IMG/VR virus record: IMGVR_UViG_3300044645_002359
Location: 22,355-86,354 of that record
Origin: a virus
Reading direction: 5' to 3' (one strand)
DNA length: 64,000 nucleotides
Shown in pieces: positions 4,699-61,065 of this stretch (position 1 is the first letter of the stretch; each line of letters opens with the position of its first letter). The notes beneath the pieces are model-generated. The model worked only from the letters and a program-made list of their open reading frames with translations, was not told where the DNA came from and ran no database searches. Made by a program: the position numbers and the translations under genes.

Positions 4699-6291
4699 AT
4701 GCAAGGTTCCTTTTCTGAACAGTCACTGAAGCAGTACGAAGAGTTAATCGGAGAAATAGCTTCTGTAAACTTTTCCGAATTAAATTCAGATGTGTACGAT
4801 TTCACACGTTGCGTTCGCGCGGACGGTACTGTCTACGGTTCACGAGGAAAGTGCCGCAAGGGACGTGAGGCTGCCGCAGGCGCTGGCCCTTCTCAAGCCC
4901 CGAGGAAGAGTACGGCAGCTCGAATGGCTGCTGCCGCTGAAAAGTTAGAAAGTCCTAAGCAAACTCCGGCCAAAGTTAAGGCACCGGTTCCCGCTCCCGT
5001 AGCAACTCCAGCAGTTAGAACCGTTAAAAAGCCCAGGGCAGCCCCACTCACCGCTGAGGGAAAGGCAGAGAAGAAGTGGCTCGCACAGAAAGATAAATTA
5101 GACGCGATAAAGGCAGAACACGCCAAGATGATTGCTGAGGTTGAAGCGCAGGGGCACAAAGTATACGCCACCGGTACGGGGGCCAGTATGCTTCATAGGC
5201 TGGCTAAAGAGAGGGGAATTGCTACACCGGCTCAGCTATCCAGTATGCGAATAAAACTCTTCCAACAAGAGCCTGAGCGCATCAAAAAAGAAAGGTTGGC
5301 GGAAGAAGAGAAGAAAAGACTGTCGGAAATTGCTGGAACCACTAGAGAACAGCGCAAGGGGATGGTCCGTGAGCGAATTGAGGAGCTGAAGAAGAGCAAA
5401 TATCTAGACACGTTGAAGGACGTTAATAACAACGTCGAAATGATGAAGAAGTGGATAGAAACAGACCCTTCCATGGATACCCTGAAAAACCGTGTTGCTT
5501 TGACGGCAATGCGGTCTTTCCGTGCGCAAATGGTGAGAGAAGCAAGGCTTAAGCGAGAAGAAAAGTACAGGAGCCTTGACGAATTCCTCAAAGAGTCGCC
5601 CAAGTATAACAGAACCCCTGGTTCCAGGGAGCCTATGAAAGCTAAGTATGATGACAGCGAAAGGGAGCAAAAAAGACTTGAAAAGATTTATGAAGCACAA
5701 GGGTTTAACGCTAGACCAGAACTTGTAAGGTCAAGATCTGACCTTGAGAAAAGGAAGGACATCCTAAGAGAGCCTGACGGAAGGCCACTAATTCTCTATC
5801 GAGGGGTATCGGAAGAAAGCTTAGCAAGACAGTTCCAAGGCTCTGGTCCAGACGGAGACAGACACTACCCTGGTCGGGGGGTGTATGGAAACGGGAGTTA
5901 CGCTGCTTCTGCGGGGGGAAATCCGGGTTCTTGGAACACGGACGGAAACTTTGACAAGACTGCACAAAGAACAGCTTCTTCGTATACGAGTAGTGGTGGA
6001 AACCCTAAGGATAAAGTTACAGCCTTCGCTCTTCGTTCGGACGCAAATGTGGTTCAGTTCGAAGGGACAAATCCTGCGCTAAGGGACTTAGAATACAGAA
6101 AATGGTCAAGAGAAATTAGGAAACAGGCGTCAGAGAAATTCGGGGCTGAGTTTAACGATCAGGGCGAAGCTGCCGCTGCTATGGGAATCCACGCCTATAG
6201 AGTTCCAATGAGTTCTGACGAAGACTACTGGATTATTCTAAATCGCGGTGCTGTCATCGCTGCACAAGATTCTCAACTACCAGACTTATGA
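4699..6291 (+). CDS. ADP-ribosyltransferase-like protein (R-S-E-type motifs), N-terminal DFTRCV…GKC module, K/E/A-rich central coiled coil
   Basis: C-terminal region carries LYRG…YTSSGG…QFEG, which resembles the Arg, STS and QxE motifs of ADP-ribosyltransferase toxins and T4 Alt. The N-terminal 45 aa are shared with the ORFs at 23382 and 29773. Confidence 0.5.
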   Translation: MQGSFSEQSLKQYEELIGEIASVNFSELNSDVYDFTRCVRADGTVYGSRGKCRKGREAAAGAGPSQAPRKSTAARMAAAAEKLESPKQTPAKVKAPVPAPVATPAVRTVKKPRAAPLTAEGKAEKKWLAQKDKLDAIKAEHAKMIAEVEAQGHKVYATGTGASMLHRLAKERGIATPAQLSSMRIKLFQQEPERIKKERLAEEEKKRLSEIAGTTREQRKGMVRERIEELKKSKYLDTLKDVNNNVEMMKKWIETDPSMDTLKNRVALTAMRSFRAQMVREARLKREEKYRSLDEFLKESPKYNRTPGSREPMKAKYDDSEREQKRLEKIYEAQGFNARPELVRSRSDLEKRKDILREPDGRPLILYRGVSEESLARQFQGSGPDGDRHYPGRGVYGNGSYAASAGGNPGSWNTDGNFDKTAQRTASSYTSSGGNPKDKVTAFALRSDANVVQFEGTNPALRDLEYRKWSREIRKQASEKFGAEFNDQGEAAAAMGIHAYRVPMSSDEDYWIILNRGAVIAAQDSQLPDL

Positions 6292-6437
6292 ACATTAACG
6301 AACCAAGCACCAGCCGTCAACTTGCTGCCCTGATTCAGGGTGTCAAAGGCGAGCACAGAGACCAATTTATTGAAGACGCTAAGAAAGCGAAAGACATGGG
6401 ATCTTTCATCAAGCACTTTCTGAAATCTTACGAATGA
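6288..6437 (+). CDS. small hypothetical protein (49 aa)
   Basis: ATGA-coupled small ORF, below the track cutoff. Confidence 0.3.
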   Translation: MNINEPSTSRQLAALIQGVKGEHRDQFIEDAKKAKDMGSFIKHFLKSYE

Positions 6438-6607
6438 CCGAAGAAGAGGAAACCTTCGAGGCCACAATGCAGAAACTATTCACTGCAAAGTGGAATATCC
6501 CTCAAGCAACCGCAGCTTTGGGCAAATCGGCGAATAAAGAAAACTGGGAAGAAACGAAAGATCTATTTCGGGAGTTTTGTGCTTTACACCCGCCTGCAAC
6601 CTTTTGA
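6434..6607 (+). CDS. small hypothetical protein (57 aa)
   Basis: ATGA-coupled small ORF. Confidence 0.3.
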   Translation: MTEEEETFEATMQKLFTAKWNIPQATAALGKSANKENWEETKDLFREFCALHPPATF

Positions 6608-6831: not shown

Positions 6832-7509
6832 ATGCTTGACCTCACTACACTTGTGGCCGTTTCCATCGTTGGAACTGCTGCAACCCCTCTGAGCGGATTC
6901 ACTGAGTTAAACAGACTGGAATACCCTGTCCCTCAGCAAGTCGCTATCAGAGTGATTGCCCCAGAAACGACCCTGGAATCGGGCCTCATTTGCACAGGCT
7001 GCGATCCCACAAAGTTTCTATCGGCTCCCGCTTACAAACTCACACCAGAGCGCAGAGCCCTTTTAAATACCATTCGCTTCGCTGAAGGAACCTGGAAAGA
7101 TGGCCACGAGGATGGCTACCGGGTTTTGTTCGGAGGTCGAATGGTTTCGTCTTTAGATAGACACCCGAACCAAATCCAATACTCCTCGCGCTACACCAGC
7201 GCAGCAGCCGGAGCTTACCAATTCCTTCCGGGAACTTGGGGAGAAGCCTCAAGAAAACTCAACCTTCTAAACTTCGGGCCTAAGAGCCAAGACCAAGCTG
7301 CTCTCTTTTTGATCGAACGGCGTAATGCCTTGAGCCTCGCAGATTCCGGGAAGATCACCCCAACGCTAATCGCAAAGCTAGCTCCTGAATGGGCCTCTCT
7401 TCCGACTTATGGCGGCAACAGCTACTATGGTCAGCCGGTCAAAAGGTATGAGGACCTGCGGCGCTTCTATGAGAGTAACTTGGCGATGCTCCGCCAGGAG
7501 GCAAGCTGA
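6832..7509 (+). CDS. lytic transglycosylase, lambda R-like (glycoside hydrolase family 104 (GH104)) with an about 70-aa N-terminal extension
   Basis: AEGTWKDGHEDGYRVLFGG…AAGAYQFLPGTW…FGPKSQDQAALFLI…WASLP aligns with lambda R over SEGT…GYDVIVGG…GAGRYQLL…FSPKSQDAVALQQI…WASLPG. Confidence 0.7.
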   Translation: MLDLTTLVAVSIVGTAATPLSGFTELNRLEYPVPQQVAIRVIAPETTLESGLICTGCDPTKFLSAPAYKLTPERRALLNTIRFAEGTWKDGHEDGYRVLFGGRMVSSLDRHPNQIQYSSRYTSAAAGAYQFLPGTWGEASRKLNLLNFGPKSQDQAALFLIERRNALSLADSGKITPTLIAKLAPEWASLPTYGGNSYYGQPVKRYEDLRRFYESNLAMLRQEAS

Positions 7510-7613
7510 TGAACGGTTTCCCGAACTTTACTTGCTCGTCGCAACAAGCTACAATGGTAGCGAGCCTGAGTAATCAGGCACTGAGCCGTGGTTGCCAACC
7601 GCAACAAACACGG

Positions 7614-7982
7614 ATGTCGAACTCTAATGTTTTCATGCGTTTTTCCAAATTAGCCTCATTCTTCCTCGTCGCAGGAATTCTTTCCGGAGTACCTGCACAA
7701 GCAAGGCAGTGTGGCCAAGCCAGTTGGTATGGCCCTGGCTTCTACGGGAACAAAACTGCCAACGGTGAAATTTACCGTCGTGGTACCATGACTGCAGCGC
7801 ACCCTTCACTCCCCCTTGGTAGCTGGGTAAGGGTTGTAAACCGAGATAATGGACTCATTGCCGATGTTCGTATTAACGACCGTGGTCCTTACTATGGTGG
7901 TCGAATTCTCGATCTCGGTCACGGTGCTGCAAGGAGCCTTGGAGTTAGTGGCGTGGCCAACGTTTGCATTTCTCGTCTCTGA
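7614..7982 (+). CDS. RlpA-like double-psi beta-barrel (DPBB) protein with a signal peptide
   Basis: ASWYGPGFYGNKTANGE…AAHPSLPLGSWVRVVN…NDRGPY…GRILDLGHGAARSLG matches the RlpA/3D-domain signature; the N-terminus MRFSKLASFFLVAGILSGVPAQA looks like a signal peptide. Confidence 0.6.
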   Translation: MSNSNVFMRFSKLASFFLVAGILSGVPAQARQCGQASWYGPGFYGNKTANGEIYRRGTMTAAHPSLPLGSWVRVVNRDNGLIADVRINDRGPYYGGRILDLGHGAARSLGVSGVANVCISRL

Positions 7983-8037
7983 TCGCCATGGGTGATGCCT
8001 TGCTGGTACTCACCCTTCTTTCCTATACTTCTTAAAA

Positions 8038-8256
8038 GTGACACGATTCAAATTTCGGACCCCTAACGGCTTGACCCGGATTGAGCTTTTAATCTGTGTG
8101 GCTATTTTTGGGATCCTTGCATCAATTGTTGCCGGGGAACTCTCTGGTAAAAGTCCGTACAGAATGAGTGACTGTGTTCGGTCCGGGGGAAATTGGACTG
8201 AAGGTTATGAACTCGGGCATGACACCGCACTTTGCATCTACGGCCCGAGAAAGTAA
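8038..8256 (+). CDS. membrane protein with a prepilin-type N-terminal segment (LTRIELLICVAIFGILASIVAG)
   Basis: Resembles the type IV pilin N-terminal methylation helix; sits downstream of the lysis genes, so it may instead be a holin-like transmembrane protein. Confidence 0.35.
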   Translation: MTRFKFRTPNGLTRIELLICVAIFGILASIVAGELSGKSPYRMSDCVRSGGNWTEGYELGHDTALCIYGPRK

Positions 8257-8276
8257 GTTCAACAACCTAAACTACA

Positions 8277-9248
8277 ATGTCCCAACTCAAAATAGAAACT
8301 CTTTTCAAGTACTTGAAAGTTACAGATTGGGGGGGAGAAGAGGTTTATTTCCCCTTTTACCATCAGAGGCCGTGCCCTCCGCCTGGGACTAGATGGCAAA
8401 AATTTGACCCAGTTGATCTAGGATTCAACACTGGAAATCACTTCCCCCACACCCAGATGTTTGTAGTAGGGAATCCGGATAGGGAAAGTACAAATATGTA
8501 TGTAGCTTTCCGTGAAAAGAGTTTACTAGAAAAGTTCATTTTCACGGTGAAGACACATTTCCACCCCTCAAGAGATGACTTTGTGTTGGTAGATGCAATT
8601 TTGTCTTTTATTAGAAAGTTTCCAGAATGTTGTTCCTCAGAAGCTTTCGAATTACAAAAAGAGATCCTACGGAAAAAAGGAAATTCCGAATTCAGCCGTT
8701 TCGATTTTTACGATAGAAGCCACATATACATTAACATAGTGAGTAAGTCCGAAGCTTCATACAAGGTCCATAACCTGAGGGATAGCTCCCGTTGTGTTAC
8801 AACACTTTCTCCTACAAGCCATTTCATGATTGAGCGGTCGGAGTCTAAAGCCAGGAAACAAAACCCTTTCTTCACGTCAGTGAATCGTAAAATCCTAGAG
8901 ATTACTAAAAAAGATGGGCAGACTTTGTTTTTTCCGATATTGCGAAATTATTTCATGGGAGTCGCAATGAACACTTTTCAAGACGCATTAGATTTTCTAG
9001 ACCTTGTCTCTCCCAATGTATATCCAGACTCGGACGTGCGTACAGTCGGGAAAGCTAAAAAAATCCTAGAAGATGTAACTAGAAGACTTTTTCAACTGAA
9101 AAACAGTTTAAATGCCCTCTCAGCCAACGAAGAGACAAGTAAATGGGTCGTCCAGGAAGTCCAAAAAGTCTATCCGAAGGGGAAAGTTTTTCATGGCTCA
9201 CGGACAACGGCCTATGAGTTCGGCCCTATAGGAGAAACTATGGTATAA
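8277..9248 (+). CDS. hypothetical protein (323 aa)
   Basis: Long ORF with no identifiable motif. Confidence 0.5.
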   Translation: MSQLKIETLFKYLKVTDWGGEEVYFPFYHQRPCPPPGTRWQKFDPVDLGFNTGNHFPHTQMFVVGNPDRESTNMYVAFREKSLLEKFIFTVKTHFHPSRDDFVLVDAILSFIRKFPECCSSEAFELQKEILRKKGNSEFSRFDFYDRSHIYINIVSKSEASYKVHNLRDSSRCVTTLSPTSHFMIERSESKARKQNPFFTSVNRKILEITKKDGQTLFFPILRNYFMGVAMNTFQDALDFLDLVSPNVYPDSDVRTVGKAKKILEDVTRRLFQLKNSLNALSANEETSKWVVQEVQKVYPKGKVFHGSRTTAYEFGPIGETMV

Positions 9249-9404
9249 TCCCCCATGGTAAATCTCCCAATAATCGACCCAATAGCAAGGTGATTGTAAC
9301 CCTGAGAGGGCAAAGTGCTATTTGCACCGGGGTTCATAACCCCACAATCACATTCCGGGATTTGTAACCCGGATCTGTACAGACAAAACATAAACAAAAA
9401 AAAA

Positions 9405-10253
9405 ATGAAAATTCGCATTATTGCTACCTCAGCAGCTATCGCTTCACTCGCCACTCCCGCGCTCGCCGCACCTCAATTTTCTGACGCTGCTCGGACAAAT
9501 TGGGCCTATGGCGCTCTTCAAAACCTCGCTGAAAAGTATGGTTGTGTTGCTGGTTATCCCGATGGTACTTTCCGTGGTAGCAATTCCACCACCCGTTACG
9601 AAAGCGTTGCTCTCGTGAGTGCCTGCATTGATCGGGTTTATGACACCCTGAGCCAAGCTGATCGTCGCATTGCAGACGAGGCTCGCATTGCAATCGTAGC
9701 GACTGATGCTCGTGTTTCTGCCCTTGAGAACACAGCAACTCGGAAAGCGGTTGGAGTCGGCAGTTACGTTGGTGCAGGCGTTAACCTGAATCGTCAAGGC
9801 GTTAGCAGCGATGCCTATGGAAACAATCGCACTGTTGTTGGAGCTACCCTTCAGGGACGTTTCCCCCTGGGTAACCTCTACGGAGTTTCCACTTCTGCCC
9901 GCCCCTATGTAAACTTTGCGGCTGGACCAGATAGCCAAATTGGTTCTGCCCTCGGTGTTCTGGGTACCGTTGACGTTTCCTTGGCTGGGCGTACCATTGG
10001 CGGTATCCTCGTTAGCAGCACTAACCTCTACTTCGGTGCCGGTGGCCAATGGGCTTTGACGAATAATGGTCAGGCCAACTATCAAACTAGCGTTGGTCAA
10101 GGTTCTCAGTTTGTATTTGTTGCCGGTGTTGAGCGTTCCTTCACTCCGTCCCTGGTTGGTTTCGCTGATCTGAAGTTCCCGACCCAGGAAAATGGTGTTG
10201 CTGGAACGGCTTACGCCCCAGTTGGCACTATCGGCCTCGGATTTAAGTTCTGA
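9405..10253 (+). CDS. SLH-domain outer-membrane beta-barrel protein (cyanobacterial Som/OprB-like mini-porin)
   Basis: Signal peptide, then the SLH motif FSDAARTNWAYGALQNLAEKYGCVAGYPDGTFRGSNSTTRYESVALV, then a Gly/Ser/Thr-rich region of alternating residues ending in …GLGFKF, the outer-membrane-protein C-terminal Phe. Confidence 0.6.
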   Translation: MKIRIIATSAAIASLATPALAAPQFSDAARTNWAYGALQNLAEKYGCVAGYPDGTFRGSNSTTRYESVALVSACIDRVYDTLSQADRRIADEARIAIVATDARVSALENTATRKAVGVGSYVGAGVNLNRQGVSSDAYGNNRTVVGATLQGRFPLGNLYGVSTSARPYVNFAAGPDSQIGSALGVLGTVDVSLAGRTIGGILVSSTNLYFGAGGQWALTNNGQANYQTSVGQGSQFVFVAGVERSFTPSLVGFADLKFPTQENGVAGTAYAPVGTIGLGFKF

Positions 10254-10258
10254 TTGCT

Positions 10259-10537
10259 GTGGGGGGTTTAACCCCCTCTTTCTTTTCATCCATTATTCCA
10301 AGCAAAATGACACCCGAAGATCAAACCAACGCAGTTATCAACCAAGTTAAAACTTCTTCGTTTTTCGTGGTTGCCGCACTGTCCCCCAGCTTCCTTATTT
10401 CTCTGCTTTGCGTTTTTGCTTACTTGGTTACGCAATTCCCCGAAATTAAGGAGCCAGTTTCTAACGTAATCAGCAACCTCCTGGCCCGTGCCGGAGTTAG
10501 GCCCAACCAACAAGACACTCACACCGATAGCAAATGA
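10259..10537 (+). CDS. small membrane protein (92 aa)
   Basis: Hydrophobic segment FVVAALSPSFLISLLCVFAYLV. Confidence 0.4.
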   Translation: MGGLTPSFFSSIIPSKMTPEDQTNAVINQVKTSSFFVVAALSPSFLISLLCVFAYLVTQFPEIKEPVSNVISNLLARAGVRPNQQDTHTDSK

Positions 10538-11085: not shown

Positions 11086-12075
11086 ATGATCGCCCTACCC
11101 AACGTCAAGGAAGAAACGGTTATCGAGCCGTTAGTCAAAGAACTGATTCAGGTTACCGTTGAAACAGAAGGCGGTTTGGGTTACGTTCATAGGAAAACTT
11201 TTCAATTCAGTGCAGGAGAGACTCAAGTTCGCCTCAGTCCTTTGCCTACAGGAGTCAGGAAGATTCGAGTTAGGGCGGATATTGAGAGCAGCCAAACTTT
11301 GGTAGAACTTCTTCTGACTTTGGATGCTATTAACAATCTAGAGTACCAAGGTCCTGTCGGATTAACCCTCCCATACCTTCCTTACAGCCGTCAAGACCGC
11401 GCCTGCGCACCTGGCGAGGCTTTTGCCCTTTCTGTTCTTGTAAACTGCCTCGTCCCGTATCTCGGTGCCGACGACACTATCACAACTTGGGATGTTCACA
11501 GCAGTGTGGCACGAACCCTTTTCGATAGTAAATTCCAGGGAGTATTCTATAATGTCTCCGCAGCGAGTCTCTTGCAGAATTTTGAGCTTGAAAAAGATGT
11601 GGTATTCAATCCCTCAACCATTGTCATTGCCCCAGATAAGGGTGCTGTAGACCGGGCCACAGAAGTTCAAAATGTCCTGGGACTAGAACGGACCGTGTAC
11701 GCAACCAAAGTTCGCAATCCGGACGACGGCCAGATCCTAAGAACAGAAGTTCCCGAAGACGTGAATTACCGAGGCAAAAACCTTTTGATTGTAGACGACA
11801 TTTGTGATGGTGGCCGCACTTTCATCGAACTTGCCAAGGTTTTGCGAGAATACGAGCCGTCACGTATTGACCTTTATGTGACACATGGGATCTTCTCAAA
11901 AGGTTTCAAAGTTTTTGAGGGCTTTATTGACAACATCTACGTAGCCAACCTGTTGATGGAACTCATTGAGCACCGCGATGGACGAAAGTCGTTCCCATCA
12001 GGTTCTGACCTCTGTGAAAATGTGGGATGTTATAGAGAATTTCCGAGCAACGTGACTTATCTCCGAAACATTTAA
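11086..12075 (+). CDS. ribose-phosphate pyrophosphokinase (PRPP synthetase)-like; candidate ADPR-PP synthetase (Adps) of an NAD-reconstitution pathway
   Basis: 329 aa; PRPP/PRTase motif NLLIVDDICDGGRTF; Prs-like length; immediately upstream of the NAMPT-like gene. Confidence 0.65.
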   Translation: MIALPNVKEETVIEPLVKELIQVTVETEGGLGYVHRKTFQFSAGETQVRLSPLPTGVRKIRVRADIESSQTLVELLLTLDAINNLEYQGPVGLTLPYLPYSRQDRACAPGEAFALSVLVNCLVPYLGADDTITTWDVHSSVARTLFDSKFQGVFYNVSAASLLQNFELEKDVVFNPSTIVIAPDKGAVDRATEVQNVLGLERTVYATKVRNPDDGQILRTEVPEDVNYRGKNLLIVDDICDGGRTFIELAKVLREYEPSRIDLYVTHGIFSKGFKVFEGFIDNIYVANLLMELIEHRDGRKSFPSGSDLCENVGCYREFPSNVTYLRNI

Positions 12076-12113: not shown

Positions 12114-13616
12114 ATGAAACTCTTCGCCCCTAACCTTACAGACTTCTACAAGACGGGTCACTACCGCCAGTACCCTGAAAACACGGAGTTCATCTACTCG
12201 AACATGACCGCACGGTCGGACCGTCTCGCCAAGATGCTCCCCGACTACGACCACAAAGTAGTGGTAGCAGGTATTCTGGGCACAGCAGCTTGGTACCTTC
12301 GCGACCTTTGGAACGATACTTTCTTCAGTCAACCTAAAGACCGAGTACTTGAAAAGTACCGCAGGCGAATGGACTCGGCTCTCGGACCTGGCGCCGTGAG
12401 CACAGCCCACCTGGCCGAACTTCACGACCTCGGTTACCTTCCAATCCGAGTAAAGGCTCTCCCAGAAGGCACCCGTGTCAATCTGCGCGTCCCCTTCCTC
12501 ACGGTGGAGAACACACACCCCGACTTCTATTGGGTGACTAACTACATTGAAACTGCCCTGTCGGCTGAAGTTTGGAAGCATGTCAACAATGCAACCATCG
12601 CCTACGAGTTTCGCCGCCTACTTGACCGATACGCAGATCTAACAGGGACTGACCGGTCTTTTGTTGACTTCCAGGCGCACGACTTTTCCTTCCGAGGAGT
12701 TAGTGGTATTCACGATGCTGCTGCCCACGGGATTGGACACCTGTTCTCCTTCAAGGGTACGGACAACATCCCGGCAATTGACTTCTTGGAAGATTACTAC
12801 AACGTTGAAGGCGAATTTATCGCCGGTGGCGTCCCTGCTACCGAACACAGTGTTATGTGCACCGGGGGCCAAGATACTGAGATTGACACCTACAGGCGTC
12901 TGATTTCTGAAACTTACCCGACTGGTATTGTTAGCATTGTTAGCGACACTTGGGACTACTGGAACGTTCTCACGAACATTGCTGCCCAACTGGAGGAGAC
13001 GATCCTGAATCGCCAACCGGATGCCCTTGGCCTTGCCAAAGTTGTATTCCGCCCTGATAGTGGAGACCCCGAGAGAATCCTTTGCGGCGACCCGGACGCT
13101 GAACCCGGCAGTCCAGCCTTCAAAGGCTCTCTGCAGCTCCTCTGGGACCTCTTCGGAGGCACCGTAAACGAGCAGGGCTTCCGCGTCCTTAACCCTCGCG
13201 TGGGCCTCATCTACGGTGACTCGATCACCCTTCCTAGAGCTCTTTCCATTCTGGAGAACATGCACAGCAACGGATGGGCCAGCGGTAACGTTGTTTTCGG
13301 TGTGGGTTCGTACACTTACCAGTTCCACACTCGCGATACATTCGGCATCGCTTTCAAGACGACTTGGACTCAAATCAACGGTCAACCTGTCGAAGTTATG
13401 AAAGATCCGATTACCGACCGTGGAACTAAGAAGTCGGCCAAAGGGTTGCTTCGTGTTGAAGAAGAGAATGGCGAGTACGTTCTCTACGAGCAACAAAGTC
13501 GAGATGAAGAGAGTCGAGGAGAACTGCGAACCGTATTTATGAATAGCCAGGTCTTCGAAAGACCCGACGAGAGTTTGACGAACATTCGCAGTCGTCTTGT
13601 CTCGCCAAATTCCTAA
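12114..13616 (+). CDS. nicotinamide phosphoribosyltransferase (NAMPT/NadV)-like; candidate Namat
   Basis: 500 aa; the N-terminus NLTDFYKTGHYRQYPENTEFIYSNMTAR matches the NAMPT start (TDSYKVTHYKQYPPNT…); overall NAPRTase-family architecture. Confidence 0.75.
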   Translation: MKLFAPNLTDFYKTGHYRQYPENTEFIYSNMTARSDRLAKMLPDYDHKVVVAGILGTAAWYLRDLWNDTFFSQPKDRVLEKYRRRMDSALGPGAVSTAHLAELHDLGYLPIRVKALPEGTRVNLRVPFLTVENTHPDFYWVTNYIETALSAEVWKHVNNATIAYEFRRLLDRYADLTGTDRSFVDFQAHDFSFRGVSGIHDAAAHGIGHLFSFKGTDNIPAIDFLEDYYNVEGEFIAGGVPATEHSVMCTGGQDTEIDTYRRLISETYPTGIVSIVSDTWDYWNVLTNIAAQLEETILNRQPDALGLAKVVFRPDSGDPERILCGDPDAEPGSPAFKGSLQLLWDLFGGTVNEQGFRVLNPRVGLIYGDSITLPRALSILENMHSNGWASGNVVFGVGSYTYQFHTRDTFGIAFKTTWTQINGQPVEVMKDPITDRGTKKSAKGLLRVEEENGEYVLYEQQSRDEESRGELRTVFMNSQVFERPDESLTNIRSRLVSPNS

Positions 13617-13716: not shown

Positions 13717-14307
13717 ATGGACTACAAGACAATCGCATACAAAAAGACCATTCTGGTCCTCAATTCCACGTATGAACCACTCAATAGTACCTCATGGCGC
13801 AGGGCTAGAGTTCTAGTCTTGAAGGAAAAAGCTCATGTAGTTTCTAGTCGCACAATTCGCCTGAAAAACTACGTGAAGGTCCCCCAAGCCAAAATGGCTG
13901 CTGGAAAGCCTTCTCGCGCTCTCATTTTGAAGAGAGACGGACACACCTGCCAGTACTGTGAGTATTCCGGTCCCAACCTTACAATCGACCACGTAGTTCC
14001 GAAGTCTCGAGGCGGCCAAGACACTTGGCAGAACCTTGTTACTAGCTGCCTAGAATGTAACAACTGCAAGGACAATCGTACCCCAGAAGAATGGGCTATG
14101 GCCCTGAAGAAGGTGTTTGCCAAAGAAACTACGAATGTTTCCCCCTTGCCATTCACCTGGGATAGCTTCCAGGTCGGAATGATGGAGACCAGAGTAAACA
14201 GCCGGGGCACAACCTTAATTGGAAAGCCGAAGGCACCTTACAGCAAGATGTCTGTTACGATTAGCACTGCCGAAGTTGACGAGTGGCGCGAATACGTTTA
14301 CGTGTAA
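13717..14307 (+). CDS. HNH endonuclease
   Basis: CQYCEYSGPNLTIDHVVPKSRGGQDTWQNLVTSCLECNNCK is an HNH motif. Confidence 0.75.
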   Translation: MDYKTIAYKKTILVLNSTYEPLNSTSWRRARVLVLKEKAHVVSSRTIRLKNYVKVPQAKMAAGKPSRALILKRDGHTCQYCEYSGPNLTIDHVVPKSRGGQDTWQNLVTSCLECNNCKDNRTPEEWAMALKKVFAKETTNVSPLPFTWDSFQVGMMETRVNSRGTTLIGKPKAPYSKMSVTISTAEVDEWREYVYV

Positions 14308-18688: not shown

Positions 18689-19789
18689 TCAACTTTCTGG
18701 AGAAGAGGAACTAAAGGAGTTTACTTGATACTTGACACTTTCACTAAGCTCATCTAGACTCATGTCCCGAATGTCTCTCTCCCAGATGTATATTACCGTA
18801 AACCCGTATTTCTCCGCAACTCCCTTCTTCTCTATATCCCTCTCCCAAATTTCTTCCACAAGGGTACTACCCCCTCCCGGAAGGTGAATACTGTCCCCAA
18901 ACGAATAGATTTCGGGGTTAGCGTGCCAATAGTCCCCCTGGACCTCTATTAGCACTTTGGTCCCCGTAATCAAAAAGTCAAATTGCCTTCTGGCAACAAA
19001 TCGAGAGAACTGAAATTTCAGACCCGCAAGTTCTAAAGCTTGAGACACCTTTTCTTCAACCTTGTTCATTTTCGTAAAAAACTTACCACTCAAGAAGTCA
19101 TCATTGACTTGCTTCCAGAATTTCCTTGTAAGCTCTCCTCTTCTTTCGGAGTACTCCTGCTTTCTTTCCTCGCCCCACCCCCTTCTCGTTTCCCTGAGTT
19201 TTTCTGCTATTGAACTCATCTTTTCCAAGGAAAAAGAAGCTCTAGTCAGAGAAATTGCCTCCGGGTTGGTAACCCTAAGCTTACCATAGCGCTCAAGATG
19301 AGTTTCGTTTATCTTTTCTTTGACATCTGAAAGTTGGAAAACATTGTCCACCCCGTACTTTGATCTAACTGTTTCATTTCTCTTGTGGTAAAATTCAGTT
19401 CCCTTACAGAGAACATTATTCACTCCGTACTTTTCTTGAGAAACTTTCACCATTTTACTTTTCTTTTGATTTGAACCATTAGCTTCTTTAATTTTTCTTA
19501 CAGGTATCTCAAAGTAGTCCATTAGAAAAGATAGTCTCCTGCCCGGTAATCCAAAAAGCTCTTTGAAGTCCGGGAAGCTGAACCCCTTAATCAGGTACAA
19601 GTGCTTTAGTTTTCTGCCACTCTCTAGTTTCAGCGCCGGGTAGCTAAGCTTCAAGGTGTTAAACCTGTACTCCTTTTCCGATAAACCAGGCCCCTTAAGA
19701 CAGGTTTTCAAATGAATCTTCCTTCCACACTCCTTAAGACAAACAAAGCAAACCAAACTCTTAACTAGAACCCCCATGAAAATCTCCAA
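18689..19789 (-). CDS. free-standing homing endonuclease (Vsr/DUF559-like PD-(D/E)xK C-terminal domain, repeated KYGVxNV N-terminal modules)
   Basis: The only − strand gene; C-terminal VLIEVQGDYWHANPE…ERDIEKK…GFTVIYIWERDI resembles a Vsr-like endonuclease domain; it sits between the IntN and IntC halves. Confidence 0.6.
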   Translation of the reverse strand: MEIFMGVLVKSLVCFVCLKECGRKIHLKTCLKGPGLSEKEYRFNTLKLSYPALKLESGRKLKHLYLIKGFSFPDFKELFGLPGRRLSFLMDYFEIPVRKIKEANGSNQKKSKMVKVSQEKYGVNNVLCKGTEFYHKRNETVRSKYGVDNVFQLSDVKEKINETHLERYGKLRVTNPEAISLTRASFSLEKMSSIAEKLRETRRGWGEERKQEYSERRGELTRKFWKQVNDDFLSGKFFTKMNKVEEKVSQALELAGLKFQFSRFVARRQFDFLITGTKVLIEVQGDYWHANPEIYSFGDSIHLPGGGSTLVEEIWERDIEKKGVAEKYGFTVIYIWERDIRDMSLDELSESVKYQVNSFSSSSPES

Positions 19790-20654
19790 AATAGAAAAGA
19801 TAGAAAGTGACTCCCACCTATATGATATACAAACTTTTACCCGTAACTTCTACGCTGAGGGGGTATTGGTACACAATAGCTTAATCAAGCTCTTCAACTA
19901 CAACGGGGACTGGATTGTTTCGACGTCCGGATCGGTGGCAGCAGCTTCGGAAGTTGGTTCCACTGGGCGTTCTTTTGAGGAACTGTTCTGGCTTGTCTTT
20001 GACGAAGTTGGTTATTCTCGGGAATGGCTCGATGAGGGTCTGTGCTATATCTTCGAACTGTGCCACCGCGATAACCGCATCGTTGTGGATTATGCAGAGC
20101 CTCAGTTACCGCTGCTGGCTGTGCGCGACCGTTCCAACGATTTCGAAGAGCTTGAACTTGTTTCGTTCTGCAACCTGTTCGGGTTCAAAGCTGCCAAGTC
20201 GTATGACCTGGGGAGCATGGAAGGCTTGATGGCAGTCGTGAACGATCGTGGCGCCGACCACGAAGGGTTTATCCTGTTTGACGGTGTTGGTCGTGCGAAA
20301 GCAAAGTCCGATGTGTACTGCCAAATGCACCGTGTTCGCGGAAACGGCGATCCGGACTTCTCCGAGCTTTTTCTGAACGACGATTTGGAAGAATTCCTAC
20401 TGCACTTCCCTGAGTACCGTGAGGGCTTCGACGTTCACCTGCGTTCCATCGACATAATGGAAGTTGCTGTGGAAGAGATCATGGGGGTTTACAACCACTT
20501 GAATCAGAAGGACTTTGCTCAAGTTGTAATTGCTAAGGAGAGGGAACTGTCGGGGGCTTGTTTTGCGATTCGCTCCGGTAAAGTTGGCTCCTTCGGTCAG
20601 TGGCTGGAAGGCTTGTCTCCGAAGAAGCTGGATGCCCTGCTGGGTATCAACTGA
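19776..20654 (+). CDS. split-intein IntC (…FYAEGVLVHN|S) fused to the RNA ligase 1 C-extein
   Basis: MKISKIEKIESDSHLYDIQTFTRNFYAEGVLVHNS gives intein blocks F and G with a +1 Ser. The extein SLIKLFNYNGDWIVSTSGS…EGFILFDGVGRAKAKSDVY matches T4 Rnl1 DGSLVST…KSKGS and motifs IV and V EGYVAV…KIKSDWY. Confidence 0.65.
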   Translation: MKISKIEKIESDSHLYDIQTFTRNFYAEGVLVHNSLIKLFNYNGDWIVSTSGSVAAASEVGSTGRSFEELFWLVFDEVGYSREWLDEGLCYIFELCHRDNRIVVDYAEPQLPLLAVRDRSNDFEELELVSFCNLFGFKAAKSYDLGSMEGLMAVVNDRGADHEGFILFDGVGRAKAKSDVYCQMHRVRGNGDPDFSELFLNDDLEEFLLHFPEYREGFDVHLRSIDIMEVAVEEIMGVYNHLNQKDFAQVVIAKERELSGACFAIRSGKVGSFGQWLEGLSPKKLDALLGIN

Positions 20655-26426: not shown

Positions 26427-26461
26427 TATTGCATGAACATGACACGAGCCTAATCTACAAA

Positions 26462-27586
26462 ATGGCAAACATCGAACGCAAACTTGCATCTGTCCGCAAA
26501 GTAACGGACATTCGCCCCATCCCCGACGCTGACGCCATCGAATGCGCCATTGTAGGTGGTGGTTGGCCCGTGGTAGTGAAAAAGGGAGAATTTCAGGTTG
26601 GCGACCTCGCCATCTACTTCGAGATTGATTCCTGGATTCCTCACGAACTTGCCCCATTCCTCTCCAAGGGGAAGAAACCAAGGGAGTATAATGGAGTGAA
26701 GGGGGAGAGGCTGAAAACTGTCAGGCTCCGTGGTCAAGTCTCCCAGGGTCTCCTGCTCCGCTTCTCGGACATCTCTCCAAGCTTCTACGTTGTCTCGCTA
26801 GCCGAACCTTACGGGGGGAGGGAATTTCTCCGAGTTGATCAGTGCGTGTGGGAGGAAGGTGAGGACTTCACTCTAGAGTTCGGAATTCAGAAATGGGAAG
26901 CTCCTGTCCCAGCTTGCTTGGCTGGTCAAGTTCGCGGGAACTTTCCTAGCTTCCTCGTGAAGACGGACCAGGAACGTTGTCAGAATGTTGTGGAGGAAAT
27001 CTTTGAGCGCCATAAGGGTGAAACCTACGAAGTTACTATCAAACTTGATGGGTCTTCCTGCACGGTCTACGTCAAGGACGGGGAAGTTGGGGTGTGCAGC
27101 CGTAACCTTGACCTCAAGGAAACCGAAGGCAATAGTTTCTGGAAGGCTGCTAGGGATCAGGGCATTATCGATGCTATGCTTGCATACAATGGGAAGACTG
27201 GTCACAGTATTGCCTTGCAGTCGGAAACCCTTGGAGAAGGCATCCAGGGCAACCAGGAAGGAATCAAGGGACAACGCCTATTCCTGTTTGACATCTTCGA
27301 TATCGACAGCCAAACTTACATGAAGCCAGGGGCCAGAATGAACCTCTTGGACAAGTACCTAGTTCCATTAGGCGCTGATTTAACCCATACCCCTGTCCTA
27401 CACCCCGCAATGTGTGTAACTGATAGTTCCGCCAACCTTGATGAGCTACTAGCGTACGCCGATGGCCCGTCCATGAACCCCAAAGTCAAACGCGAAGGCT
27501 TAGTATTCAAGTCCAATGACTCTGAGTTTTCCTTCAAGGCCATTAGTAATGAATGGCTCTTATCCAAGGGAAAGAAGGGTGGCTGA
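26462..27586 (+). CDS. ATP-dependent RNA ligase (KxDG nucleotidyltransferase with an N-terminal OB-like extension; DraRnl/Rnl5-like)
   Basis: Motif I IKLDGSS, motif IV EGLVFK, motif V FKAISNEWLLSKGKK; an N-terminal domain of about 170 aa precedes the nucleotidyltransferase. Confidence 0.65.
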   Translation: MANIERKLASVRKVTDIRPIPDADAIECAIVGGGWPVVVKKGEFQVGDLAIYFEIDSWIPHELAPFLSKGKKPREYNGVKGERLKTVRLRGQVSQGLLLRFSDISPSFYVVSLAEPYGGREFLRVDQCVWEEGEDFTLEFGIQKWEAPVPACLAGQVRGNFPSFLVKTDQERCQNVVEEIFERHKGETYEVTIKLDGSSCTVYVKDGEVGVCSRNLDLKETEGNSFWKAARDQGIIDAMLAYNGKTGHSIALQSETLGEGIQGNQEGIKGQRLFLFDIFDIDSQTYMKPGARMNLLDKYLVPLGADLTHTPVLHPAMCVTDSSANLDELLAYADGPSMNPKVKREGLVFKSNDSEFSFKAISNEWLLSKGKKGG

Positions 27587-31619: not shown

Positions 31620-32438
31620 ATGTCTGTCACTAAAGTTGCAATCGGCTCTGGCGCCATTCTCCTTTCTCTGGTTCTAGCCGCAGGCCAATTTACCACAATT
31701 AGCACGGGTGAAAATGGTCTTTACATTGGCTTCGATGGCCAAGTCAAAAACGAAGTGCTGACCCCAGGCATCAAGTACGACGGGTTGGGCTCCATCAAGG
31801 TGTTTAACACTCGTAAGATCACTGTCACAGCGAACGACCTTCGTCCCAAGACTAAAGATAACACCATCATGAAAGAGATGGACGTCACGGTTACTTACAG
31901 CATTAATCCTAACTCCCTTTACGAGTTTTTCACCAACTACGACCTTACCAACCACGGTATTGCCGAAAACGGTCAGCTTCAACTGATGTCAAGTTACATC
32001 TCTCGTCTTATTACATCCGCTGTTAACCAGTCGGTAGACGAATTCCCTGCTTTGGCTGTTAACAGTAGTCTTGAGCAAATTCAAGACACAATTAAGGCCA
32101 ACCTTTCGGAAGCTTTACAGAAAAATGGTCTTGAAGGTAAGATCACCGTGGATTCAATCATAGTTGGCAAGGCAGACCTTCCTGACGACCTGGTTGCCTC
32201 GGTTAACCGTGTGGTTGCCGCTCAGTCGGGTTTGAAAGAACAACAAGTTAGGACAGAAACTGCCCAATTGAAGGCGGAAGAGAACAAAGCTCTGGCTTCT
32301 ACCGTTACCGCACAATCGTTGGAATACCAGCGAAATGAAATCCTGAAGGCTGCCTTTGCCAACGGATCCATTCAGAAGATGGTTATCATCAACGGTGCCA
32401 AGATGGACTTTCTGCCCGGTGGCTTGACCGATAAGTAA
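31620..32438 (+). CDS. SPFH/band-7 (prohibitin/HflC-like) membrane protein
   Basis: N-terminal transmembrane segment, then a beta-rich segment, then a coiled-coil segment, the pattern of SPFH domains. Confidence 0.5.
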   Translation: MSVTKVAIGSGAILLSLVLAAGQFTTISTGENGLYIGFDGQVKNEVLTPGIKYDGLGSIKVFNTRKITVTANDLRPKTKDNTIMKEMDVTVTYSINPNSLYEFFTNYDLTNHGIAENGQLQLMSSYISRLITSAVNQSVDEFPALAVNSSLEQIQDTIKANLSEALQKNGLEGKITVDSIIVGKADLPDDLVASVNRVVAAQSGLKEQQVRTETAQLKAEENKALASTVTAQSLEYQRNEILKAAFANGSIQKMVIINGAKMDFLPGGLTDK

Positions 32439-34270: not shown

Positions 34271-35764
34271 ATGACAACCTTTTTGAACGCACTCGAAAAC
34301 GAATTCAATACTACGACCACAGCCAACGGCGCAAAAGCCTATAAGTCCACAGGTTCCAAGAACCTGGACCTTTTCGGGAAGATTGCAGCCTGCCGCAACG
34401 ACGTTAGCGAAGCAACTCGCCTATTCAACCTTGCTTATGCTGAAGACCCTGAGACCGCAACCAGAATCCTGTTCTGGGCACGTGACATTCGCGGTGGCCA
34501 GGGTGAGCGTAAGATCTTCCGAGAAGTTTTCAAGGAGCTGGTTCGCAATGATGCTACAATCGGCGCGAAACTCATTAGTTTGATCCCGCAGTATGGACGC
34601 TGGGATGATGTGGTAGCCCTTGAAGGCACCCTAGTTTGGAATGTTGCACTCGAGGCAATCAAGGCACAGCTGAACGCTGACTTGAACACCGAAGTTGGAA
34701 ACTCCGTGTCATTGCTTGCGAAATGGCTCCCTTCCATTAACGCCTCTAGCAAGGAGTCTAAGAGGATTGGCCGCAAGATTGCCGAGGCAATGGGTTGGAA
34801 TGAGCGTCAATATCGCAAGGCTTTGACTGCTCTTAGGACACAAATCAAAATTGTCGAACAGGCAATGTGTGCCCGTGAGTGGGATGCCATTGATTATAGC
34901 AAGTTGCCTTCTCGTGCAGGCTTCATGTATCGGAAAGCTTTCGCAAATCGTGATGGCGACCGTTACCAGTCCTACCTGGATGCAGTTAAAAAAGGTGAAG
35001 CAAAGATCAATGCCGGTACTTTGTATCCGTATGACATCGTTGAGAAGTGTCTCTACAACCAAGAATCCAATGATACTCTAGAAGTAATGTGGAAAGCCCT
35101 GCCGAACTTCATGGAGGGCAAGGAATTGAATGGGCTTGTTGTTGCCGATGTTAGCCGTTCTATGTCAGGCCGTCCAATGGCAGTATCCATCTCTCTGGCG
35201 ATGTATATCGCAGAGCGTAATACCGGCATCTGGAAGGACAAGTTCCTAACATTCTCAGGGAATCCTTCTCTACAGACTGTGACTGGCAGTAGCCTTTCAA
35301 ACAAGGTTCGCAACCTTAGCCGAGCAGATTGGGGCGGTAACACTGATATTCAGAAGACGTTTGACCTTATTCTGGATACTGCAGTTCGGAACAACATTCC
35401 AGAGTCAGACATGCCCCGCAAACTGATTATTGTCTCAGACATGCAGTTTGATAACTGTGTTATCATGGGAGGTAATTACTCCGGTCGTATGAGTTATGGC
35501 GGAGCCCGAGTCACCAACTACGAAGCAATCCGCATCAAGTACGCTCAAGCTGGCTACAGCTTGCCCGAAGTTATCTTCTGGAATGTCGATTCCTCAGATA
35601 ACGTCCCGATGAAGGCACATGATTCCGGTACCGCTCTCGTTAGCGGTTGCTCTCCGTCAATCCTGACCGCAGTTCTTACCAGAAACGCAATCACCCCATT
35701 GTCCCTAATGAGAGATGCTGTTTATACTGAAAGGTATGACGCTGTGGGTGCGGTCTTTAACTGA
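34271..35764 (+). CDS. DUF2828 family protein with a C-terminal von Willebrand A domain with a metal-ion-dependent adhesion site (vWA/MIDAS) (Ro60/TROVE-like domain order)
   Basis: N-terminus LNALENEFNTTTTANGAKAYKSTGSKNLDLFGKIAACR…LFWARDIRGGQGERKIFR fits the DUF2828 signature; C-terminal VADVSRSMSG is a MIDAS DxSxS motif. Confidence 0.6.
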   Translation: MTTFLNALENEFNTTTTANGAKAYKSTGSKNLDLFGKIAACRNDVSEATRLFNLAYAEDPETATRILFWARDIRGGQGERKIFREVFKELVRNDATIGAKLISLIPQYGRWDDVVALEGTLVWNVALEAIKAQLNADLNTEVGNSVSLLAKWLPSINASSKESKRIGRKIAEAMGWNERQYRKALTALRTQIKIVEQAMCAREWDAIDYSKLPSRAGFMYRKAFANRDGDRYQSYLDAVKKGEAKINAGTLYPYDIVEKCLYNQESNDTLEVMWKALPNFMEGKELNGLVVADVSRSMSGRPMAVSISLAMYIAERNTGIWKDKFLTFSGNPSLQTVTGSSLSNKVRNLSRADWGGNTDIQKTFDLILDTAVRNNIPESDMPRKLIIVSDMQFDNCVIMGGNYSGRMSYGGARVTNYEAIRIKYAQAGYSLPEVIFWNVDSSDNVPMKAHDSGTALVSGCSPSILTAVLTRNAITPLSLMRDAVYTERYDAVGAVFN

Positions 35765-36048: not shown

Positions 36049-36166
36049 TGGGGAATGGTGCAATGGCAGCACACGTAATTAACGGTTACCTTGGATAAGG
36101 TACAGACAGCAATTACAAAAATTCCATTCCACGGACGTGACGGAGGTTCGATTCCTTCTTCCCCAT
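36049..36166 (+). ncRNA. tRNA-like RNA with a non-canonical insert of about 85 nt (acceptor TGGGGAA/TTCCCCA; D arm GTGC…GCAC; T arm GGAGGttcgattCCTTC)
   Basis: Canonical 7-bp acceptor, D and T arms, but no standard anticodon stem; the insert carries a TACCTTggatAAGGTA hairpin and a CAGACAGCAATTA motif. Confidence 0.4.
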
Positions 36167-37255: not shown

Positions 37256-37373
37256 GGGACCGTAGCTCAACTGGTAGAGCGCTAAATAAAAGTTATCTTG
37301 TACAAGATACGTCAGCAATTAAAAAATACCTCGTTTAAAGGAGTGGTTGCAGGTTCGAGTCCTGCCGGTCCCA
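37256..37373 (+). ncRNA. tRNA-like RNA with a 46-nt insert (acceptor GGGACCG/CGGTCCC; D arm GCTCAACTGGTAGAGC; T arm GCAGGttcgagtCCTGC)
   Basis: Textbook tRNA 5' half and T arm; between them is a palindromic hairpin ATCTTgtacAAGAT plus ACGTCAGCAATTA; no well-paired anticodon stem. Confidence 0.45.
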
Positions 37374-52633: not shown

Positions 52634-52886
52634 GTCAAACGTTCAGGCTGCTTCGGCAGCCCGGAAGTAGGTGACAAAGGAACGCATTCGTTCAGTCTGT
52701 TTACAGGCCGGGATTGTCTCCAAAGGAACGCGCAAAGCAACCCTAGGAGAACACAATGATTAACACTTCAGACAATTCAACCAAAGGTCTCAACCCTCTG
52801 TTTCTTATCAAAAAAAGCCTTATCAAAGAAAGCAAACTCAAAGAAGCACAGCTTGAGATGGCCAAGAAACCCTAAATTCTATAAAA

Positions 52887-54614: not shown

Positions 54615-54759
54615 CTGCCGAGAGTAAACTGGAAACCTTGGACCCCTTAACTCCTTGGTACGAGTTTCTTTCATACTGCGAAGTTTGTCGGAGTCTGGGT
54701 GTGACTCCTTCAGTGGGCCGTTTCACTCGCTATCAAAACTACCTGAAGACAATCAAACA

Positions 54760-60574: not shown

Positions 60575-61065
60575 TTCGAGTAGCAATAGCGAAAGAATTG
60601 CAGTCTAGAGCTGAACCATTGCGGATCGATAGGGGAACCCTTGAAAACTGCCCTCGCAGTGAATACATTGGACAATTCCCCAAGACAACAGATTATGACA
60701 CTGTCATAGACAAAGACTGTGACGTTTACGTCTCAGGTGTGAAAGTCTTGTCCTTCCGAAAAGCTCTCTTTCCAATTCTTTCCGAGGGTTCTTCCAAACA
60801 GAAAGAAACTTGGGACTTTTTCCGAGCAGCTTCAAAAGAAGTTTATGGCACCCAAAGAGGTGTCGTTGCGGGCACAGAGTTTACAACTCGTCCCGAGTCA
60901 CGCTTAACTAAAGGCCAGGTTGCTTTCTTCGCCGGTGCTTCAGTGGGTTTGATTACAACGCTTCCTCAAGCGCGAGAGGCTCTGGAAAGTTCCAACGAAC
61001 TCACTAGCAAGACTCTCAAGATCAAGTATATAAAGAAAGACTACCCAGAACTTGCGGAAAAATGA
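60571..61065 (+). CDS. N-domain paralog (split copy) of the 58372 protein
   Basis: RIDRGTLENCPRSEYIGQFP…DCDVYVSGVKVLSFRKALFP parallels RIDLDTLYKCDPKDYIGYFA…DCDVYVAGVKVVAFRKSLFP. Confidence 0.5.
   Translation: MIRVAIAKELQSRAEPLRIDRGTLENCPRSEYIGQFPKTTDYDTVIDKDCDVYVSGVKVLSFRKALFPILSEGSSKQKETWDFFRAASKEVYGTQRGVVAGTEFTTRPESRLTKGQVAFFAGASVGLITTLPQAREALESSNELTSKTLKIKYIKKDYPELAEK

Follow-up and report, generated by a model that had tools for sequence, protein, structure and literature searches.

A cyanophage protein family predicted to join a Som-type SLH-stalk module to an eight-stranded outer membrane barrel

The window analysed in this work is a stretch of 64,000 nucleotides of viral DNA (IMG/VR record IMGVR_UViG_3300044645_002359, positions 22,355 to 86,354), which at 9405..10253 on the plus strand carries a gene for a protein of 282 amino acids. 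The protein appears to combine an N-terminal S-layer homology (SLH) domain and helical stalk, of the kind found in the Som porins of picocyanobacteria, with a C-terminal outer membrane beta-barrel of only eight strands. We consider it probable that this is a phage-specific, wall-tethered outer membrane protein, a "mini-OmpM", which works as an envelope-remodelling anchor rather than as a pore. The gene and its parts are the following.

9405..10253, plus strand: complete coding sequence, 282 amino acids and stop codon, with signal peptide, SLH domain, helical stalk and predicted eight-stranded outer membrane beta-barrel.
9405..9467, plus strand: Sec-type signal peptide, residues 1-21 (MKIRIIATSAAIASLATPALA, then AP), as read from the sequence.
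9477..9596, plus strand: single SLH domain, residues 25-64 (Pfam PF00395).
9594..9752, plus strand: long alpha-helical stalk, residues 64-116 (AlphaFold2 helices 64-81 and 84-116), apparently a homologue of the stalk which in OmpM and SlpA forms a trimeric coiled coil.
9765..10250, plus strand: predicted transmembrane beta-barrel of eight strands (residues 121-282), its conserved lumen polar and its C-terminus, GLGFKF, similar to a beta-signal.

The open reading frame, which runs from the ATG at 9405 to the stop codon at 10251-10253 on the plus strand, is genuine. An alternative GTG start at 9315, adopted by some public gene calls (e.g. P0005), would extend the protein to 312 amino acids; it is disfavoured because the additional 90 nt (9315-9404) correspond to a structured RNA leader, described below, and because the family alignment of 69 members starts at MKIRII. 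An antisense open reading frame of 281 amino acids (9444-10289, minus strand) was rejected as a shadow of the real gene.

The AlphaFold2 monomer model, built with the 69-sequence family alignment, places eight strands at residues 121-281, mostly with a predicted local distance difference test score (pLDDT) of 85-95. In Foldseek searches the barrel matched Ail, OmpA and OmpX, with Ail and OmpX as the top PDB matches; at identities of 7-17% the likeness to structures of outer membrane proteins is at the level of the fold only. All strands are two-sided, with a hydrophobic and a polar face; the hydrophobic fraction is 0.64 where they face the lipid and 0.28 where they face the lumen. Conservation follows the same division, since 25 of the 54 lumen-facing positions versus five of the 53 lipid-facing ones are conserved in at least 90% of the members (Fisher p=2.7e-5). 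The lumen invariants include R152, R166, D190, E243 and D255, and besides these several Tyr, Asn and Gln, a set which by sequence resembles that of closed OmpA-type barrels. Glycine makes up 30 of the 166 residues of the C-terminal part, whose last residues, GLGFKF, take in the family the form G-x-G-[FIWL]-K-F, with a terminal Phe in 62 of the 69 members. A beta-signal with terminal Phe at the end of a barrel suggests, by homology, insertion into the host outer membrane by the beta-barrel assembly machinery (BAM). Overall the model strongly supports the view that the C-terminal 160 residues or so form a closed eight-stranded barrel of the OmpA/OmpW class with a polar, filled lumen. In profile searches no Pfam family of outer membrane proteins matched the window protein at E<=1, and in Pfam, NCBIfam and PHROGs the matches were limited to SLH and to the N-terminal part of por_somb, with no membership in a family of outer membrane proteins. 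An enzyme acting on lipid A, like the fold neighbours PagL and PagP, was considered and is excluded, because there is no histidine anywhere in the barrel.

The N-terminus has the layout of a Sec-type signal peptide, with K2 and R4 before a hydrophobic core and then A-L-A ahead of A22, and in reading the sequence no lipobox Cys was found there; in the family alignment this layout is common to the family and A21 is conserved at 90% or more. The SLH domain matches PF00395 with 29.7 bits (E=6.5e-7; cutoff 20.8), and its TRxE motif is kept in the family alignment (R64 in 100%, E66 in 91%), which is consistent with ligand binding. The cysteines typical of Som proteins (YGC...AC.D) are present as C47 and C74. 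The NCBIfam model por_somb (NF033921, "iron uptake porin") aligns to residues 24-89 with its positions 6-71 of 485, at 72.7 bits for a cutoff of 100. When the SLH-stalk part is compared with a Som porin of Cyanobium (L084), the two are 46% identical over 91 residues, their stalks are of about equal length and the cysteines are common to both. A search of the PDB with the family profile (hmmsearch) retrieved OmpM (8BYS 1.3e-17, 8BYM 5.6e-16, 8BZ2 1.7e-15) and SlpA (7ZGX, E=5.5e-14), in alignments spanning the SLH domain and the stalk up to about profile position 119. These sequence comparisons strongly support two conclusions, namely that the N-terminal SLH domain and the stalk behind it, about 50 residues long, copy the module by which picocyanobacterial Som porins are anchored to peptidoglycan, and that this Som-type module is homologous to the stalks of OmpM and SlpA. 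The first-pass annotation, which was made from the DNA letters without database searches, had thus described the reading frame accurately: the signal peptide it named has a Sec-type layout which the whole family has in common, the SLH motif is found by Pfam above cutoff, and the Gly-rich C-terminal part ending in GLGFKF is predicted by AlphaFold2 to be a barrel, whose outer membrane nature is borne out by eight strands, by the polarity of their faces and by the terminal Phe.

The window comes from a large, novel picocyanobacterial phage of about 200-280 kb. Nearly all of its open reading frames are on the plus strand, several tRNAs are present, and PHROG matches include a minor head protein, an endolysin, an RNA ligase and a nicotinamide phosphoribosyltransferase (NAMPT). 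The best protein matches among isolates are to the cyanophages PSS2 and S-CBWM1 and to Synechococcus phages B3 and B23; megablast of positions 1-25000 against 50,697 phage records showed no close relative at the nucleotide level and found only a 42-nt match, in an unrelated phosphoribosyl pyrophosphate (PRPP) synthetase gene. The protein family counts 838 members at E<=1e-3, and of the best 120 of these 114 are 265-323 amino acids long, almost all with a precomputed SLH match. In IMG/VR full-length relatives were confirmed in 190 stretches, on viral contigs of up to 279 kb, and an identical copy of the window protein lies on a contig of 201 kb. Two isolates carry homologues, S-PM2 (p168, 45.6% identity over 91% of the length) and S-CREM1 (gp199, 48.5% over 92%), and the BFVD model of S-PM2 p168 (Q5GQG9) is the top viral structural match. 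By sequence the window protein is a clear member of the S-PM2 p168 family, in a divergent clade. The family as such has been catalogued since the S-PM2 genome; in the literature searched no description was found of it as an eight-stranded wall-tethered barrel or as linked to tRNA-Gly.

Outside viruses the picture is different for the two halves of the protein. In a scan of 185,579 prokaryotic species, each represented by a single genome, at least 567 cellular relatives of the SLH-stalk module were confirmed, all of them, among the matches listed, in picocyanobacteria (Synechococcus, Cyanobium or Prochlorococcaceae). The best 80 of these at least 567 relatives cover only residues from about 24 to 110/150, at 38-53% identity, and none of the best 80 cellular loci holds a full-length match. 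The lone apparent exception, the Cyanobium contig L084 with the longest cellular match (residues 24-246), was examined as a cellular short form and rejected, being an ordinary GC-rich Som/OprB host porin which runs off its contig. With the barrel alone as query (residues 105-282; phmmer without word index, 1.84 billion representatives) 15 clusters were retrieved, all of the protein's own family. A phage origin had been assumed from the sequence, and the PHROG matches, the tRNAs, the viral relatives in IMG/VR, the best matches in cyanophages, and a glutamine riboswitch and a permuted transfer-messenger RNA in the window speak for it; the cyanobacterial host that had been proposed agrees with the distribution of the cellular SLH-stalk relatives, which are picocyanobacterial and not SLH proteins of Firmicutes without an outer membrane role.

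The family also includes altered forms (P0089, P0086, P0092, P0106, P0016 and P0129). In P0016 the SLH domain is cleanly deleted, P0106 carries inserted G-x-T sequence of collagen-like type within the hairpin between strands 4 and 5, and in P0129 half of the barrel is replaced by an unrelated C-terminus. Sister phages (L097-L099 and L102, at about 5930-6560) carry a barrel-only orthologue of 188 amino acids, made up of signal peptide and barrel, in the same locus as the window gene, i.e. between a gene of RlpA type and the genes for PRPP synthetase and NAMPT. In BFVD a barrel-only analogue is found in cyanophage S-CBWM1, together with many other small outer membrane barrels encoded by phages.

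From its architecture the protein had initially been taken for a mini Som/OprB porin, that is, for an OprB porin at about half length. Of this proposal the N-terminal part stands, the SLH domain and linker being Som-like, and the part concerning the barrel does not. Pfam OprB (PF04966) had no match at E<=1 in the window protein or in its S-PM2 and S-CREM1 homologues; the positive control, the porin of phage S-SRM01, matched OprB and gave 286 bits with por_somb over model positions 1-485. By blastp the barrel was significantly similar neither to the barrel of the host porin (E=0.49) nor to the porin of S-SRM01 (E=9.8). As a candidate Som or "iron uptake porin" the protein has the N-terminal signal peptide, SLH domain and linker and falls below the score required over the whole model; the large OprB class of 16-18 strands does not accommodate it, given its eight strands, the lack of PF04966 and the unrelated sequence. 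The barrel is predicted to be a complete one of the eight-stranded OmpA/OmpW class and not half of a 16-18-stranded porin. A role in general-diffusion permeability, and with it the remodelling of host permeability suggested earlier, is therefore unlikely, and the modelled fold, with eight strands and a conserved polar lumen, probably has no pore.

True Som porins carried by phages exist alongside the short family, as the freshwater Synechococcus phage S-SRM01 encodes a genuine full-length SLH-OprB porin of 486 amino acids (L003 4890-6350). A shortened Som/OprB channel, altering the permeability of the outer membrane or the uptake of a nutrient such as iron during infection, would find some favour in this porin, in the Som-type N-terminal module and in the automatic annotation of the S-CREM1 homologue as "iron uptake porin". 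We nevertheless regard it as improbable for the window protein, in which no OprB or porin profile is matched, the por_somb match stops at residue 89 below its cutoff, the barrel is unlike those of the host and S-SRM01 porins and has only eight strands, and the residues which line the lumen include invariant Arg, Asp, Glu, Tyr, Asn and Gln, as in closed barrels of OmpA type. The database names "S-layer protein" and "iron uptake porin" are misleading, and labels of the latter type would wrongly imply an auxiliary metabolic gene for iron uptake.

Comparison with known systems gives the architecture its context. SlpA has a barrel of about 30 strands. In OmpM a trimeric coiled-coil stalk ties the outer membrane to the wall, the barrel has 16 strands with demonstrated porin activity, and the ligand of the SLH domain in Negativicutes is polyaminated peptidoglycan, whereas cyanobacterial SLH domains bind pyruvylated polymers (PMC10628300). 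The order of domains in OmpM of Veillonella and SlpA of Deinococcus, with SLH, coiled-coil stalk and C-terminal outer membrane barrel, is that of the window protein; their barrels are porins of 16 to about 30 strands, whereas that of the window protein has eight and probably no pore. With a barrel of different size, and a trimer suggested by homology, the window protein would fit the OmpM-like class only loosely. To the cyanobacterial SLH-OprB porins (SomA/SomB, Slr1841) it is similar in that a signal peptide is followed by one SLH domain with the YGC...AC.D cysteines and by a helical linker about as long as theirs, and presumably also in binding a pyruvylated wall-linked polysaccharide; those porins have about 500-550 amino acids, whereas the family described here has about 280 and an unrelated eight-stranded barrel, and has been found in phages only. 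In Synechocystis the outer membrane detaches when Slr1841 or the pyruvyl transferase CsaB is reduced (bioRxiv 10.1101/2020.03.24.006684). OmpA and OprF likewise join an eight-stranded barrel to a peptidoglycan-binding domain, but in the window protein the order is reversed, with the wall module at the N-terminus, and SLH and coiled coil take the place of OmpA_C; no sequence similarity to them was detected in Pfam at E<=1. In its layout the window protein is an inverted OmpA, and by the descent of its N-terminus a small OmpM or Som.

Eight-stranded outer membrane barrels of viral origin are known also from Lom of lambda (Ail/OmpX type), from S-CBWM1 (A0A3G1L3F6) and from the OmpA-like proteins of Cellulophaga phages. 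None of these has an SLH-stalk wall tether, and Lom, a prophage gene, is expressed in lysogens; the window gene sits in a moron-like cassette with its own terminator, and its setting appears to be that of a lytic cyanophage with early expression, a timing which is that of the S-PM2 homologue. The closest relatives, S-PM2 p168 ("putative S-layer protein", T4-GC 861) and S-CREM1 gp199 ("iron uptake porin"), have the family and architecture in common with the window protein, which differs from them in coming from an unrelated, larger phage, in a stalk four residues shorter and in a relic of a tRNA in place of an intact tRNA-Gly.

This relic belongs to the flanks of the gene, where the following features were found.

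9241..9249, plus strand: candidate extended -10 element of perfect sequence (TGgTATAAT), seen by eye and tentative, overlapping the stop codon of the upstream open reading frame.
9290..9351, plus strand: tRNA-like cloverleaf of 62 nt in the 5' leader, recognised by fold z score, compensatory pairs, covariance-model matches and alignment to tRNA-Gly.
9355..9372, plus strand: conserved hairpin CCGGG-ATTTGTAA-CCCGG following the tRNA-like element.
10261..10287, plus strand: strong terminator-like hairpin of the intrinsic type (GGGGGGTTTAACCCCC and a T-rich tail), 8 nt past the stop codon.

The fold of the leader exceeds that of shuffled controls in stability (z=-3.75), and among relatives six of its 23 predicted pairs show compensatory changes on both sides. 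The cloverleaf occurs once in the window; Rfam gave no match to it even at E<=1, and ARAGORN did not call it as a tRNA. Weak matches to a covariance model of the element occur in distant lineages, each time shortly before the barrel gene, and these distant matches are genuine tRNA-Gly genes. A tRNA-Gly precedes the barrel gene in 44 of 83 viral loci (40 with anticodon UCC and four with GCC), its 3' end lying 44-141 nt before the start codon with a mode of 58; in S-PM2 the tRNA-Gly (L002 4816-4887) is separated from the gene by 44 nt. In other lineages a hairpin equivalent to that at 9355..9372 follows the tRNA-Gly. The window element aligns to tRNA-Gly at the acceptor stem, D-stem and T-arm and is some 10 nt short in the anticodon and variable region, and judging from this alignment it is a tRNA-Gly relic of which the fold is still maintained. 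The tRNA or its relic may be a signal for the processing or the expression of the mRNA. Decoding of the glycine codons of the barrel gene by the tRNA-Gly(UCC) was considered and rejected because these codons are mostly GGT (27 of 34 in S-PM2 p168, with three GGA; in the window gene GGT 18, GGC 8, GGA 8 and GGG 1). A scan for two-hexamer sigma-70 promoters upstream of the gene found none. The extended -10 candidate is kept in L088 and L089 and is not found in relatives lacking the 323 amino acid open reading frame which lies directly upstream.

This 323 amino acid open reading frame, of no assigned kind, closes an upstream run which spans 6832-9248 and contains the following genes.

6832-7506: endolysin-like open reading frame (phrog_90, E=9.5e-33).
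7509-7979, plus strand: RlpA-family secreted protein with double-psi beta-barrel (DPBB), lytic-transglycosylase-like (TIGR00413 104.6 bits against a cutoff of 82.15; Pfam DPBB_1).
8038-8253: protein of 72 amino acids with a prepilin-type N-terminal methylation domain (TIGR02532 above cutoff).

The N-terminus of the RlpA-like protein resembles a signal peptide. In 36 of 84 loci of the barrel gene an RlpA-like (DPBB) gene precedes it on the same strand, in many of them as its direct neighbour, and this also in distant lineages. In the region of the prepilin-like gene a block of 60 nt is 93% conserved in the sister phages. A co-occurrence of the SLH form with the 323 amino acid open reading frame was considered and dropped, as L086, L087 and L090 have the SLH form without it. 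The run as a whole points to a set of envelope-directed genes.

In the mechanism which we propose the protein would be exported by the Sec pathway and its barrel placed by BAM in the host outer membrane. The stalk would trimerise, and the three SLH domains, bound to pyruvylated peptidoglycan-linked polysaccharide, would staple the outer membrane to the wall, with the filled eight-stranded barrel as an anchor or surface module and not as a general diffusion pore. Expressed early and abundantly during infection, from a cassette which is linked to a tRNA and has a terminator of its own, the protein could remodel the envelope by means of pore-less tethers, or occupy SLH-binding sites and the outer membrane surface, or both. 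Most likely the infected cell would gain protection, either because its envelope is stabilised or because further phages or grazers are kept out; uptake of solutes is an unlikely payoff. The S-PM2 protein with SLH domain is an early and abundant transcript for which a protective role has been proposed (PMC2984593). Exclusion, or masking of the surface or of a receptor, is the payoff which we would tentatively name first, because of the barrel-only orthologues and of this proposal in the literature; reinforcement of the tether, or competition with host SLH porins, is possible and would come after it, and other roles make up the remainder.

Several observations weigh against this reading. Some eight-stranded barrels, like OmpW, CarO and OprG, do pass small molecules, and a narrow channel as payoff, improbable as it seems, has to be kept in the account. 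The predicted extracellular connecting segments are fairly conserved (0.63-0.70) and insertions and deletions fall at the predicted periplasmic turns, which is unusual for a shield exposed at the surface. In the AlphaFold2 monomer the SLH region is poorly defined (pLDDT 30-60), a simple heptad scan of the stalk gave no clear coiled-coil register, and the trimer is suggested by homology alone. Barrel-only orthologues at the same locus imply that tethering is not the whole function and that the barrel must act on its own. The evidence for early expression comes from the S-PM2 homologue only, and the restriction of the family to viruses depends on an absence from cells which is strong but not absolute.

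The barrel-only forms lead directly to a rival explanation, in which the barrel is itself the effector of superinfection exclusion or receptor masking, binding or displacing a receptor or lipopolysaccharide of the host outer membrane, and the SLH-stalk does no more than immobilise it, by analogy with Llp of T5 or Cor, which block FhuA. Besides the barrel-only orthologues of the sister phages, the S-CBWM1 analogue and the frequency of small outer membrane barrels in phages point this way, and the conserved loops L1, L3 and L4 would suit the binding of a specific partner. The early and abundant expression of the S-PM2 homologue, with its suggested protective role, would fit as well (PMC2984593). 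Yet the PADLOC defence models had no match to the window protein, and most members have kept the SLH-stalk (114 of the best 120 are of the length given above), with TRxE kept in the aligned ones, a retention which indicates that wall attachment is under selection. We therefore hold an effector of this kind to be rather unlikely as the full account, and it overlaps with the wall-tethered anchor in any case, differing mainly in emphasis. Doubtful to a similar degree is a more far-reaching version of the anchor, in which virus-only, pore-less "staples", supplied from a phage tRNA operon as soon as infection begins, seize the mechanics between outer membrane and wall and block superinfection; they would compete or co-assemble with the Som porin trimers of the host and so seal or stiffen the envelope, the tRNA or its relic would be an RNA-processing signal, and the RlpA-like wall enzyme would be a co-transferred partner.

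To our knowledge spanins are apparently absent from cyanophages, and the gene might be thought of as a lysis accessory, a cassette member standing in for a spanin which late in infection frees or breaks the SLH-tethered outer membrane. Its endolysin-like and RlpA-family neighbours, the recurrence of the latter upstream on the same strand in other loci, and an SLH module that could compete with the SLH domains of host porins for sites on the wall would all agree with this. Against it stand the early timing of the S-PM2 homologue, which is among the earliest transcripts (PMC2984593), the gene's own leader and terminator and its link to tRNA genes rather than to the endolysin, the lack of an inner-membrane anchor or lipobox such as spanins have, and the consideration that a protein spanning from outer membrane to wall would re-tether and not release; a lysis function is very unlikely. 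Least credible of all is an S-layer or virion protein, forming an SLH-anchored surface lattice or, as a wall binder borne on the particle, aiding adsorption. The presence of the SLH domain and the S-PM2 annotation as "putative S-layer protein" would suggest it, but the fold contradicts it, the C-terminus being predicted as a membrane-embedded barrel with beta-signal and not as a lattice domain; a cleavable signal peptide is incompatible with virion assembly in the cytoplasm, and the SLH domain is of the type of the periplasm-facing Som/OmpM stalks.

The remainder of the window and its immediate surroundings contain a number of further elements.

On the same phage contig (L004 1-325), just past the left end of the window and about 10 kb upstream of the barrel gene: EF-Ts gene (PF00889).
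2103-2287: permuted (two-piece type) transfer-messenger RNA (tmRNA), Rfam RF04321 (73 bits; gathering score 47); the ARAGORN call of the permuted tmRNA covers 2069-2378, with the tag ANKIVKFERTAVAV.
11086-12075 and 12114-13616: salvage pair for nicotinamide adenine dinucleotide, PRPP synthetase and NAMPT, followed at 13717-14307 by an HNH endonuclease.
19776-20654, 26429-27586, 31620-32438 and 34271-35764: two RNA-ligase-like open reading frames, one of them with a weak match to an intein-splicing fragment, an SPFH/Band-7 protein, and a Ro60/TROVE-like DUF2828 protein which is 58% identical to those of Synechococcus phages B3 and B23.
36049-36166 and 37256-37373: two matches of 118 nt to the tRNA model (positions 1-71), without an ARAGORN call, which may be tRNA genes with insertions or introns.
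52638-52688: glutamine (glnA) riboswitch aptamer, RF01739, 41.3 bits against 35; a glnA riboswitch is also annotated in cyanophage S-CREM1 near the homologue of the barrel gene.
54655-55704: ADP-ribosylglycohydrolase.
58372-59859 and 61062-62057: paralogues resembling Tet/JBP-type 2-oxoglutarate-Fe oxygenases, which suggests modification of nucleic-acid bases.

Picocyanobacteria anchor their outer membrane to the wall by means of SLH porins, and in the phage protein the channel of such a porin appears to be exchanged for a minimal barrel. The family would thus be a natural experiment in which tethering is separated from transport in proteins of the OmpM/Som type. The linkage to tRNA-Gly, together with a relic which preserves the structure, suggests a tRNA-dependent maturation or expression of phage mRNA. 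As for the infection itself, the protein is a candidate early factor of envelope remodelling or exclusion in viruses which are abundant in marine and fresh waters.

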